DNA from: Escherichia coli
GTDB lineage: Bacteria; Pseudomonadota; Gammaproteobacteria; Enterobacterales; Enterobacteriaceae
Length of the DNA stretch: 64,000 nt
Reading direction: 5' to 3' (one strand)
NCBI RefSeq assembly: GCF_013122565.1
Contig: NZ_CP053258.1
This document shows, piece by piece, positions 1,703-36,900 of this stretch (the first letter of the stretch is position 1; each line of letters opens with the position of its first letter). Both the position numbers and the translations under genes were made by a program. The notes under the pieces were generated by a model, which worked only from the letters and a program-made list of their open reading frames with translations, had not been told where the DNA came from and did not search any database.

Positions 1703-2302
1703 ATGAAGCCAGGGTGTACGCTGTTTTTTCTCTTATGTTCTGCATTAACCGTTACAACAACGGCGCATGCACAAACACCAGATACGGCAACGACCGCGCC
1801 TTATCTGCTGGCTGGAGCCCCTACTTTCGATCTCTCCATCAGCCAGTTTCGAGAAGACTTTAACAGCCAGAATCCCAGCCTGCCACTGAACGAATTTCGT
1901 GCCATCGACAGCAGTCCCGACAAAGCCAATCTCACTCGTGCTGCCAGTAAAATTAACGAGAACTTGTATGCTTCTACAGCGCTGGAGCGCGGTACCTTAA
2001 AAATCAAAAGCATTCAAATGACCTGGCTACCCATCCAGGGGCCAGAGCAAAAAGCCGCGAAAGCGAAAGCTCAAGAATACATGGCAGCGGTGATCCGCAC
2101 ACTCACCCCATTAATGACCAAAACACAAAGCCAGAAAAAACTGCAGTCACTACTAACGGCGGGGAAAAACAAACGTTATTACACCGAGACAGAAGGTGCA
2201 CTGCGTTATGTGGTCGCGGACAACGGCGAAAAGGGGCTGACCTTCGCTGTTGAACCGATTAAGCTGGCGCTATCTGAATCGCTTGAAGGTTTGAATAAAT
2301 GA
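1703..2302 (+). CDS. yiiQ: DUF1454 secreted protein YiiQ
   Basis: 199-aa ORF with N-terminal signal peptide (…TTTAHA/QT); synteny upstream of tpiA. Confidence 0.85.
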   Translation: MKPGCTLFFLLCSALTVTTTAHAQTPDTATTAPYLLAGAPTFDLSISQFREDFNSQNPSLPLNEFRAIDSSPDKANLTRAASKINENLYASTALERGTLKIKSIQMTWLPIQGPEQKAAKAKAQEYMAAVIRTLTPLMTKTQSQKKLQSLLTAGKNKRYYTETEGALRYVVADNGEKGLTFAVEPIKLALSESLEGLNK

Positions 2303-5083: not shown

Positions 5084-5247
5084 CGCCTGACTCTCTTATG
5101 TTGTGTTGTGATGAGCAAAGCGTGCCAGAAGGTTAACCAAACATTAAAGAATAAAAAAAGATTGGCTATAACTTGCGGGTATATGTTGGGGGTTAAAAAG
5201 GCGGAAGAAATCCGCCTCATATTGCTGACAAAGTGCGCTTTATCGAT

Positions 5248-5346
5248 GCCGGATGCGGCGCGAACGCCTTATCCGGCCTACAAAAGCTTGTAAATTCAAT
5301 AAATTGTAGAATTCATGTAGGCCTGATAAGCGAAGCGCATCAGGCC
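5248..5346. repeat. REP/BIME element (two REP palindromes)
   Basis: gccggatgcggcgcgaacgccttatccggcctaca and gtaggcctgataagcgaagcgcatcaggcc, canonical enterobacterial REP sequences. Confidence 0.85.
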
Positions 5347-7447: not shown

Positions 7448-7528
7448 AAATACTCCCGCTATCAACTGACGCTAGTATAACGGAAGCAAATCATCTGCAA
7501 TGCATTAAGCAGCAGGCAAATTGAGGAT

Positions 7529-7555
7529 AAAAAAAACCCCCACATCATGTGGGGG
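7529..7555 (-). terminator. cpxP intrinsic terminator
   Basis: minus-strand hairpin cccccacatgatgtggggg followed by a U-run (A-run 7529-7536 on + strand). Confidence 0.75.
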
Positions 7556-7592
7556 AAGACAGGGATGGTGTCTATGGCAAGGAAAACAGGGT
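7530..7592 (-). ncRNA. cpxQ: CpxQ sRNA (cpxP 3'UTR-derived), probable
   Basis: about 60 nt between the cpxP stop and its terminator; CpxQ is known to be processed from the cpxP 3'UTR; exact 5' end not determinable from sequence. Confidence 0.5.
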
Positions 7593-7595
7593 TTA

Positions 7596-8096
7596 CTACT
7601 GGGAACGTGAGTTGCTACTACTCAATAGCTTCAACGATGAACTTTTTTGCCATTGCGTCACGTCACGCAACTGCTCCATTCGTTGTTGATGTTTCTCGTT
7701 TAAAACCGCTTGCTGCTCCGGCGTTAACAGGCGATACATTTGGTTGCGGACTTTTGCCATCTCAACCTGACGAGCAATTTGCTCATTCGCCATTTTTTCT
7801 GCCTGTGCGCGCACAGCGTTTTCATCAAAATTTTCTGCGGTGACAAGGCGATGCATTGTCTCCAGTTCGCTAACATTAACAGGAGGCTGTTCGTGCCGGG
7901 CCTGTTGCATAAGATCTCGCATCTGCTGACGCTGATGTTCGGTTAAACTTATGCCGTCGAACATATGGCTCTGCGTACTGCGCTGCGTAAGTTCTTCACC
8001 CGGATGCCAGTTATCGCCTGAACCGACTTCAGCAGCGTGGCTTAATGAACTGACTGCCAGCGTTGAGGCCATGACGGCAGCGGTAACTATGCGCAT
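7596..8096 (-). CDS. cpxP: periplasmic Cpx pathway inhibitor/adaptor CpxP
   Basis: 166 aa from the second Met ([21 protein letters not shown] signal peptide); divergent from cpxRA. Confidence 0.93.
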
Positions 8097-8175: not shown

Positions 8176-8190
8176 GTAAAACAACGTAAA
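8176..8190. promoter_or_regulatory. CpxR-P binding box in cpxP-cpxR divergent promoter
   Basis: GTAAAacaacGTAAA, a perfect match to the tandem GTAAA-N5-GTAAA CpxR consensus; a further GTAAA half-site on the opposite strand near 8141-8150. Confidence 0.7.
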
Positions 8191-10325: not shown

Positions 10326-10410
10326 GTAGGCAGGATAAGGCGTTTACGCCGCATCCGGCATTTGAGCAGGATGCCTGATGCGATGCTGGTAGCGTCTTAT
10401 CAGGCCTACA
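10326..10410. repeat. REP/BIME element
   Basis: gtaggcaggataaggcgtttacgccgcatccggca plus gatgcctgatgcgatgctggtagcgtcttatcaggcctaca. Confidence 0.8.
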
Positions 10411-19197: not shown

Positions 19198-19326
19198 TGC
19201 CGGATGCGGCGCGAGCGCCTTATCCGGCCTACAGGTCGGCAACAGTTGTAGGCCTGATAAGACGCGACAGCGTCGCATCAGGCATTGATTGCCGGATGCG
19301 GCACGAGTGCCTTATCCGGCCTACAG
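19198..19326. repeat. REP/BIME cluster (three REP palindromes)
   Basis: three copies of gccggatgcggcgcgagcgccttatccggcctacag-type palindromes between rhaA and rhaD. Confidence 0.85.
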
Positions 19327-32588: not shown

Positions 32589-32866
32589 TTTTCAATACTC
32601 ATAATCCATCACCCACTATTGAAAATACATTGCTGTTTTTACAACCGGTGCAAGGTTTGTTATTTGCATTCACTCATCAGAAACATTTATTTATTGATGC
32701 GATGATTAAAACAAAATGTCTTATATAAATAATGATTAATTCTTAAAGGATTAATGCGACCGGAGTATATCGATATAAACCGGAATTAACGAGATAATTT
32801 ATTGTGGTGAAAATATTATTTAAATGCTGAATAATATATTGAGGATTATTTAATAGAAAAATAAAA

Positions 32867-33928: not shown

Positions 33929-36900
33929 ATGCAGGTCAGCAGAAGGCAGTTCTTTAAGATCTGCGCTGGCGGTATGGCAGGCACCACGGCAGCGGCACTG
34001 GGTTTTGCACCCAGCGTAGCACTCGCGGAAACCCGGCAGTATAAACTGCTGCGCACCCGCGAAACCCGTAATACCTGCACCTATTGTTCCGTAGGCTGTG
34101 GGCTGTTGATGTACAGCCTCGGTGACGGAGCAAAAAACGCCAAAGCATCTATCTTCCATATCGAAGGCGATCCGGATCACCCGGTCAACCGCGGTGCACT
34201 TTGTCCGAAAGGCGCTGGCCTGGTGGATTTCATCCACTCCGAAAGCCGTCTGAAGTTTCCGGAATACCGTGCGCCAGGTTCTGATAAATGGCAGCAAATC
34301 AGTTGGGAAGAGGCGTTTGATCGCATCGCCAAACTGATGAAAGAAGACCGCGATGCTAACTACATTGCGCAAAACGCCGAAGGCGTGACTGTTAACCGCT
34401 GGCTCTCTACCGGGATGCTGTGTGCTTCCGCATCGAGTAACGAAACCGGCTATTTAACGCAAAAATTCTCCCGCGCGCTGGGTATGCTCGCGGTCGACAA
34501 CCAGGCGCGTGTCTGACACGGACCAACGGTAGCAAGTCTTGCTCCAACATTTGGTCGCGGTGCGATGACCAACCACTGGGTCGACATCAAGAACGCCAAC
34601 CTCGTCGTGGTGATGGGCGGTAATGCCGCTGAAGCTCACCCGGTCGGGTTCCGCTGGGCGATGGAAGCCAAAATTCACAACGGCGCGAAGCTGATTGTGA
34701 TCGATCCTCGCTTTACGCGTACGGCGGCGGTAGCTGACTACTATGCCCCTATTCGTTCCGGTACTGACATTGCTTTCCTGTCAGGCGTATTGCTGTACCT
34801 GCTGAACAATGAAAAATTCAACCGCGAATACACCGAAGCCTATACCAACGCCAGCCTGATCGTGCGTGAGGATTACGGCTTTGAAGATGGCCTGTTCACC
34901 GGCTATGACGCGGAAAAACGCAAGTACGATAAATCCTCCTGGACTTACGAACTGGACGAAAACGGCTTCGCCAAACGCGATACCACGCTGCAACATCCGC
35001 GCTGCGTGTGGAACTTGCTGAAACAGCACGTTTCCCGCTACACGCCAGATGTGGTTGAAAACATCTGTGGTACGCCAAAAGACGCGTTCCTGAAAGTCTG
35101 CGAATACATCGCAGAAACCAGTGCTCACGATAAAACTGCCTCGTTCCTGTATGCCCTCGGCTGGACGCAACACTCCGTTGGTGCGCAAAACATTCGTACG
35201 ATGGCGATGATCCAGCTGCTGCTCGGCAATATGGGGATGGCAGGCGGCGGCGTTAACGCCCTGCGCGGTCACTCCAATATTCAGGGGCTGACGGACCTGG
35301 GGCTGCTGTCGCAGAGCCTGCCAGGTTACATGACGCTGCCAAGCGAGAAGCAGACCGATCTGCAAACCTACCTTACCGCCAACACGCCAAAACCGCTGCT
35401 GGAAGGCCAGGTAAACTACTGGGGCAACTACCCGAAATTCTTCGTCTCTATGATGAAGGCCTTCTTTGGTGATAAAGCGACGGCGGAAAATAGCTGGGGC
35501 TTTGACTGGTTGCCGAAGTGGGATAAAGGCTACGACGTCCTGCAATACTTCGAGATGATGAAAGAAGGCAAGGTCAATGGCTATATCTGCCAGGGCTTTA
35601 ACCCTGTTGCCTCATTCCCGAACAAAAACAAAGTGATCGGTTGTCTGTCGAAACTGAAGTTCCTCGTCACTATCGACCCGCTGAACACTGAAACCTCTAA
35701 CTTCTGGCAGAACCACGGTGAGCTGAACGAAGTTGACTCGTCGAAGATCCAGACCGAAGTGTTCCGTCTGCCATCGACCTGCTTCGCGGAAGAGAACGGT
35801 TCAATCGTTAACTCAGGTCGCTGGTTGCAGTGGCACTGGAAAGGTGCGGACGCCCCGGGGATTGCGCTGACTGACGGCGAGATCCTCTCCGGTATCTTCC
35901 TGCGCTTGCGCAAGATGTATGCCGAACAGGGTGGCGCAAACCCGGATCAGGTGCTGAACATGACCTGGAACTACGCCATTCCGCATGAGCCGAAGTCGGA
36001 AGAAGTGGCGATGGAGAGCAACGGTAAGGCGCTGGCCGATATTACCGATCCGGCAACCGGTGCGGTTATCGTCAAGAAAGGTCAACAACTTAGCTCGTTC
36101 GCCCAACTGCGCGATGACGGTACAACTTCCTGTGGTTGCTGGATTTTCGCCGGTAGCTGGACGCCGGAAGGCAACCAGATGGCACGCCGTGATAACGCCG
36201 ATCCGTCTGGCCTCGGTAACACGCTGGGCTGGGCATGGGCATGGCCGCTTAACCGCCGCATTCTGTATAACCGCGCCTCCGCAGATCCGCAGGGTAACCC
36301 GTGGGATCCGAAGCGTCAGTTGCTGAAATGGGACGGCACTAAGTGGACCGGCTGGGATATTCCGGACTACAGCGCAGCGCCTCCGGGTAGCGGCGTCGGG
36401 CCGTTTATCATGCAGCAGGAAGGCATGGGGCGTCTGTTTGCCCTCGATAAGATGGCGGAAGGTCCGTTCCCGGAACACTACGAGCCGTTTGAAACGCCGC
36501 TGGGAACTAACCCGCTGCATCCAAACGTTATCTCGAACCCGGCTGCACGTATCTTTAAAGACGACGCCGAAGCATTGGGTAAAGCCGATAAGTTCCCGTA
36601 TGTCGGAACCACCTATCGTCTGACCGAGCACTTCCACTACTGGACCAAACACGCGCTGTTGAACGCGATTTTGCAGCCAGAGCAGTTTGTGGAAATCGGT
36701 GAGTCGCTGGCGAATAAACTTGGCATTGCCCAGGGCGATACCGTGAAAGTCTCCTCCAACCGTGGCTATATCAAAGCCAAAGCGGTGGTGACCAAACGTA
36801 TTCGCACGCTGAAAGCGAACGGCAAAGATATCGATACCATCGGTATTCCGATTCACTGGGGCTATGAAGGCGTTGCGAAAAAAGGCTTTATTGCCAATAC

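Follow-up and report, generated by a model that had tools for sequence, protein, structure and literature searches.

[quoted passage not shown] It is released by RNase E with the assistance of Hfq, and mutation of the conserved cleavage site abolishes it (PMC9438474, citing Chao and Vogel 2016; PMC5222698). Cleavage by RNase E was reported for Salmonella (PMC9438474, PMC5222698). For E. coli, processing by RNase E, dependence on Hfq and a species of 58 nt have been described (PMC6755755, PMC9438474, PMC10250213). Northern blots of E. coli reveal this 58-nt CpxQ, and constructs that start further upstream are processed to the same RNA (PMC6755755). CpxQ carries a natural 5' monophosphate, has a half-life of more than 16 min and represses nhaB in E. 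coli (PMC10250213), where deletion of hfq lowers its level (PMC7815308). The 5' end of the RNA serves as the seed for nhaB and cfa (PMC6755755). CpxQ furthermore lowers the levels of Skp and CpxP (PMC4817254) and represses fatty-acid degradation genes (bioRxiv 10.1101/2024.10.18.618624), while the repression of cfa acts mainly via an exposed Rho-utilisation site (bioRxiv 10.1101/2024.02.02.578684).

Several small RNAs are reminiscent of CpxQ. SroC, SdhX, NarS and MalH are likewise cleaved near the parental stop codon, keep the terminator of the mRNA, require Hfq and possess a conserved seed (PMC9438474). However, they derive from other parental genes and have other seeds and regulons. In contrast to these four RNAs, CpxQ originates from a monocistronic stress mRNA and belongs to the same pathway as the protein CpxP. 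Hrs1 of Erwinia amylovora, an Hfq-dependent RNA of about 74 nt, resembles CpxQ in its position between cpxP and fieF and in having a terminator. It is co-oriented with cpxP and fieF, its terminator is Rho-independent, and its original authors held it to be Erwinia-specific (PMC4070566).

We compared these systems with a locus in a 64-kb stretch of E. coli DNA (64,000 nt, hereafter the window). Its open reading frames and annotation identify the region as the E. coli arrangement cpxA-cpxR / cpxP / fieF / pfkA. The cpxP coding sequence, found both as an open reading frame and in the annotation, spans 7596..8096 on the minus strand and represents the parental mRNA of CpxQ. The encoded CpxP is 99% identical to E. 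coli CpxP proteins. The gene stops with TAG at 7598-7596 (minus strand), and a second in-frame stop, TAA, follows at 7595-7593. Other species do not conserve the second stop of this tandem TAG TAA (7593-7598). Two plus-strand reading frames, 7547..7843 and 7549..7689, were considered as small-ORF candidates and rejected, as they merely run antisense through cpxP.

The mature CpxQ of the window occupies 7529..7586 on the minus strand, measures 58 nt and corresponds to cpxQ (b4716) of MG1655. In the MG1655 record NC_000913.3, the ncRNA is annotated at 4106330..4106387 and starts 9 nt past the cpxP stop codon. Alignment with known CpxQ, the check named by the sequence-only reading of this DNA, yielded 57 of 58 identical positions with K-12 and 58 of 58 with the locus of S. 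enterica subsp. diarizonae (L006). The sole mismatch with K-12 lies in the terminator loop at position 7545, where the window has A and MG1655 has C. A is also the predominant base within E. coli and occurs in other genera, and the polymorphism, which affects an unpaired base, is probably neutral. Apart from this base, the window shares with the CpxQ of K-12 and Salmonella enterica the same locus, strand, length, structure, parental gene and CpxR box. The 64-nt 3' UTR was found in 5,425 of 5,426 complete E. coli genomes and is identical to that of the window in 4,191.

The sequence-only reading had equated CpxQ with 7530-7592, the stretch right after the cpxP stop. Its identification stands, since the interval contains b4716, and the stretch is indeed the 3' UTR. 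Its bounds do not: they begin 6 nt too early and end 1 nt short. The interval represents the entire 3' UTR past the double stop, minus one U, and not the mature RNA, whose 5' end lies 9 nt past the stop codon at 7586. Here, the mature 5' end and the definitions of the seed were taken from the K-12 annotation and from secondary sources. That CpxQ resides in the cpxP 3' UTR is correct and already known. For the full statement that 7586-7529 is CpxQ and acts as published, we estimate a probability of roughly 0.96.

Folding of the 58-nt RNA gave a minimum free energy (MFE) of -17.4 kcal/mol (z = -2.7), with 2 of 200 shuffles performing equally well. The first 13 nt (UUUUCCUUGCCAU; 7574..7586, minus strand) form a single-stranded 5' seed, unpaired in the MFE fold and invariant in 81 species. 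They are followed by stem-loop 1 (7557..7573, minus strand), which appears in both the MFE and the consensus fold and consists of a 5-bp stem, AGACA/UGUCU, with the loop CCAUCCC (7568-7562). Stem-loop 1 is invariant in sequence in Enterobacteriaceae, so that there is no covariation to score. The CCAUCCC loop is a possible second seed.

The intrinsic terminator that had been proposed past cpxP is borne out on the minus strand by a hairpin at 7555-7537 and a run of eight U at 7536-7529. The hairpin (CCCCCACA-UGA-UGUGGGGG; 7537..7555) is apparent in the sequence, the scan and the fold, and has 8 bp, six of them G-C, and the loop UGA. The U8 tail (7529..7536), with 6 of 8 columns invariant, marks the transcription stop and the expected Hfq-binding 3' end. 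A generic scan counted 2 terminator-like sites in 1 kb where 1.0 is expected, and thus does not discriminate by itself. The 81 species contain 18 distinct hairpin sequences. Folded one by one, all of them form a hairpin, of 6-9 bp and -10.7 to -17 kcal/mol. The variants carry compensatory changes, from A-U to U-A and from C-G to G-C or U-A, and two of them contain U-G pairs that are feasible solely on the cpxP-sense strand. Covariation was read from this per-sequence folding in place of an RNAalifold alignment. When MAFFT and RNAalifold were applied to the 24 unique CpxQ variants, differences in loop length caused the terminator to be misaligned and just 4 pairs were recovered.

The comparison set comprised the window and the cpxP loci of 80 other Enterobacteriaceae species, 81 in total. 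Loci were gathered by the CpxP protein and not by the RNA, so as not to select for the seed. The protein alignment for the locus scan was built from a representative search, as a plain homologue search returned just proteins that were at least 88% identical. Across this set, the last 150 nt of cpxP show 75% identity to the window (63% at third codon positions), with 25 of 150 columns invariant. The 5' 31 nt of CpxQ (7586-7556) are 100% identical, with all 31 columns invariant. The values for the terminator stem-loop (7555-7537) are 92% and 5 of 19 columns, and those for the 80 nt downstream (7528-7449) are 44.5% and 0 of 80. CpxQ is therefore conserved far beyond chance. The seed region, whose divergence had been named as the observation that would speak against CpxQ, does not diverge: the 5' 31 nt are the same in 81 of 81 loci, two Salmonella enterica subspecies included.

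The CpxQ core is also retained in more distant loci. Loci whose CpxP is only 48-54% identical keep CCUUGCCAUAGACAC...CUGUCUU, 10-85 nt past the stop codon. In one of these (L094, about 2040-2100), the 5' seed and the small stem are kept and the CCAUCCC loop is replaced by UAUAUCU. In a further locus (L095, about 1996-2035), where CpxP is 36% identical, the neighbouring genes differ and gmk/rpoZ lie downstream, we found a plain terminator only, and not the CpxQ core. L094 and L095 mark how far the conservation of CpxQ reaches. The hairpin is under structural constraint and the 5' part under strict sequence constraint. The latter fits the expectation for a seed that serves multiple targets and for recognition by RNase E and Hfq.

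These data bear on the view that the region serves cpxP solely as 3' UTR and terminator, halting transcription ahead of fieF and stabilising the mRNA, and has no function as a trans-acting RNA. The hairpin and its U8 tail do constitute a normal intrinsic terminator, and one is needed at this place anyway. However, a terminator leaves 31 invariant, unpaired or weakly paired nucleotides in 81 species unexplained, while the sequence of the hairpin itself varies freely. The published deletion and overexpression phenotypes (PMC4817254, PMC6755755, PMC10250213) also argue against this view, as do a stable 58-nt species and the loss of target regulation upon seed mutation, both of which are published for K-12. 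We therefore consider it highly improbable.

Upstream of cpxP, in the cpxR-cpxP intergenic region, lies a CpxR-P box (GTAAAACAACGTAAA; 8176..8190, plus strand). Its pattern, GTAAA-N5-GTAAA, is the established consensus for phosphorylated CpxR and reportedly goes back to De Wulf et al. 2002, as cited in PMC4817254. The box is the sole perfect match in the 64-kb window, for which 0.09 would be expected. Judging from this motif, transcription of cpxP, and hence of CpxQ, is predicted to be driven via the box at 8176-8190. Phosphorylated CpxR would activate the cpxP promoter, and the resulting transcript of about 0.6 kb would stop at the intrinsic terminator (7555-7529). RNase E would then cut 9 nt past the stop codon, between 7587 and 7586, and Hfq would stabilise the 3' fragment on the hairpin and the U tail. 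Binding of Hfq at the hairpin and the U8 3' end is to be expected from published work (PMC9438474, PMC7815308).

The context of the predicted processing site, ACCCUG/UUUU (7583..7592, minus strand; the slash marks the cleavage between 7587 and 7586), was recognised by its conservation. The hexamer ACCCUG, which immediately precedes the mature 5' end, reaches a conservation of at least 90% despite a spacer between stop codon and CpxQ that ranges from 0 to about 85 nt. When compared with the RNase E consensus RN/WUU, the annotated 5' end agrees at +1 to +3 and deviates at -2, which is U and not R.

CpxQ could in principle be an independent sRNA gene with its own promoter within the end of cpxP, as is the case for MicL or DapZ. 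Internal promoters exist for some sRNAs from mRNA 3' ends, and the tandem stop provides a weak -10-like sequence, TAGTAA, at 7598-7593. This sequence, however, does not end in the invariant T, and no -35 element stands at a suitable spacing from it. A generic scan for a sigma-70-like promoter before CpxQ found none, although the same scan misses the cpxP promoter too. Moreover, the spacer of 0 to 85 nt between stop codon and CpxQ is without conserved promoter-like sequence, and both the processing from longer transcripts and the natural 5' monophosphate (PMC6755755, PMC10250213) point to cleavage. An own promoter thus appears just as improbable as a mere 3' UTR, and release from the cpxP mRNA by RNase E is the reading that we retain.

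To score targets, we used a search for contiguous helices, which replaced global duplex energies. Calculated against long target windows, the latter were no better than those of shuffles and were dominated by long interior loops. CpxQ nt 4-11 are complementary to the cfa 5' UTR at -135..-128. Counted along the long UTR, these positions are +78..+85, where the CpxQ site has been described (bioRxiv 10.1101/2024.02.02.578684). Nucleotides 7-18 are complementary to nhaB +299..+310, within the coding sequence, with U7 in a G-U pair, matching the published interaction (PMC10250213). Nucleotides 18-25 (ACCAUCCC) are perfectly complementary to skp -20..-13, beside the Shine-Dalgarno sequence. An alternative pairing with skp would place nt 3-13 across the Shine-Dalgarno sequence, and the 5' seed is also complementary to the translation-initiation regions of nhaB and skp. 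Compared with shuffled seeds, the cfa duplex was the sole one to stand out (3/100), whereas the duplex energies of nhaB and skp were no better than those of shuffled seeds; for seeds this short, statistical distinction is not to be expected. Complementarity to cfa, nhaB and skp, as predicted from sequence, falls at the published target sites. According to this model, mRNAs such as those of nhaB, skp, cfa, agp, ydjN and fimA would base-pair with the unpaired, invariant 5' end and perhaps also with the CCAUCCC loop. Pairing would block translation initiation, promote decay or, for cfa, raise Rho-dependent termination. As an outcome, the load on the inner membrane would be lightened under envelope stress.

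The 3' part of cpxQ has a second use, as an attachment site for P2-like prophages. The 47-bp att core (7526..7572, a DNA site with no strand) consists of the 3' 44 nt of cpxQ plus ATC and is unoccupied in the window. In strain 67-1, a 31.7-kb P2-like prophage lies between cpxQ and fieF and is flanked by a 47-bp direct repeat. The copies of the repeat, at 921-967 and 32645-32691 of locus L003, are equal to window 7572..7526. The left junction of strain 67-1 contains an intact cpxQ. At the right junction lies a copy truncated at its 5' end, in which stem-loop 1 with its CCAUCCC loop, the terminator and the U tail are present. Among 5,426 complete E. coli genomes, about 12-15% diverge immediately past the terminator (835 genomes; 673 extra partial copies), corresponding to insertions at the site in about 670-835 genomes. 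Outside E. coli, 6 of 88 loci, among them those of Kosakonia and Yokenella, also have P2-type integrases or their remnants next to cpxQ.

Insertion between cpxP and fieF is known from prophage Wphi1 of E. coli W (PMC3032704) and from a Salmonella Infantis prophage (bioRxiv 10.64898/2026.03.17.712176), and both sources call it intergenic. The arrangement is similar to that of the P2-like Wphi2 at cyaR (PMC3032704), where the phage core repeats the 3'-terminal sequence of an sRNA gene and the gene is intact after integration. In lysogens of Wphi-type P2-like phages, the truncated cpxQ copy directly past the last prophage gene could end phage transcripts and give rise to a phage-derived RNA that resembles CpxQ, binds Hfq and disturbs the Cpx response of the host. 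We regard this as unlikely, and it concerns lysogens, not the empty site of the window.

Such a DNA-level attachment role could also be invoked to explain the conservation in place of RNA function, given that the 47-bp core overlaps the 3' 44 nt of cpxQ and that P2-type integrases adjoin the gene in several genera. Yet the att core leaves out the most conserved 5' 14 nt, and keeping a phage target constant brings a host no advantage. What phages typically exploit are RNA genes with pre-existing conservation, for instance tRNA genes, ssrA and cyaR (PMC3032704, table). Attachment as the cause of conservation is hence scarcely credible, and the att role more plausibly reflects phages that exploit a conserved gene. 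Use as an att site is a property of the DNA, unlike the RNA mechanism by which CpxQ acts.

Rfam 15 contains no CpxQ family, and no sense-strand match to an Rfam model was obtained for CpxQ in the window. Elsewhere in the window, REP-type repeats at 10329-10406 (+), 19251-19321 (-) and 5237-5324 match naRNA4 (CssrE) and ES036, two of them above the gathering threshold. A strong SECIS_3 match of 84.3 bits at 34511-34569 (+) presumably marks a formate dehydrogenase gene with its selenocysteine insertion element. At the cpxQ locus itself, RF02628 (Hrs1) matches 7529-7601 on the plus strand, opposite to cpxP, with 44.5 bits (E = 2e-6), which does not reach the gathering score of 56.4 bits. The model scores above gathering in two Erwinia-like loci, L088 at 2011-2084 (-) and L089 at 2029-2101 (-), with 83.4 and 74.7 bits respectively. 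In both, the match again lies on the strand opposite to cpxP. The RF02628 consensus opens with A7 and a hairpin comes next, the order of a terminator in reverse. Hrs1 and CpxQ have the core CCUUGCCA...AUCCCUGUCU in common, and on the basis of this shared core, Hrs1 is the Erwiniaceae orthologue of CpxQ. The orientation of RF02628, apparently on the wrong strand, is most likely a curation error, and the low score of the window reflects the narrow Erwinia seed of the model together with its orientation.

A functional plus-strand RNA antisense to the cpxP 3' UTR, which the orientation of RF02628 in the window, L088 and L089 might suggest, can be dismissed as next to impossible: such an RNA would open with A8 and have a hairpin without a U tail and hence no termination, its fold reaches merely z = -1.6, the U-G pairs of two hairpin variants would turn into A-C mismatches, and hrs1 itself was placed on the cpxP/fieF strand with a Rho-independent terminator (PMC4070566).

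Automated annotation misses cpxQ. Among the matches listed, PGAP-annotated RefSeq E. coli genomes have no cpxQ feature, and only the curated MG1655 record annotates it. Rfam offers no model for the sense strand, and its Hrs1 model is apparently inverted, which probably contributes to the omission. Within the Cpx response to inner-membrane stress, CpxQ constitutes the non-coding arm, and it is a textbook case of a regulatory RNA from an mRNA 3' end. Its presence in the window only confirms that the annotation is correct. At the same time, cpxQ doubles as a hot spot for P2-like prophages, which is relevant for engineering and interpreting the cpxP-fieF interval.
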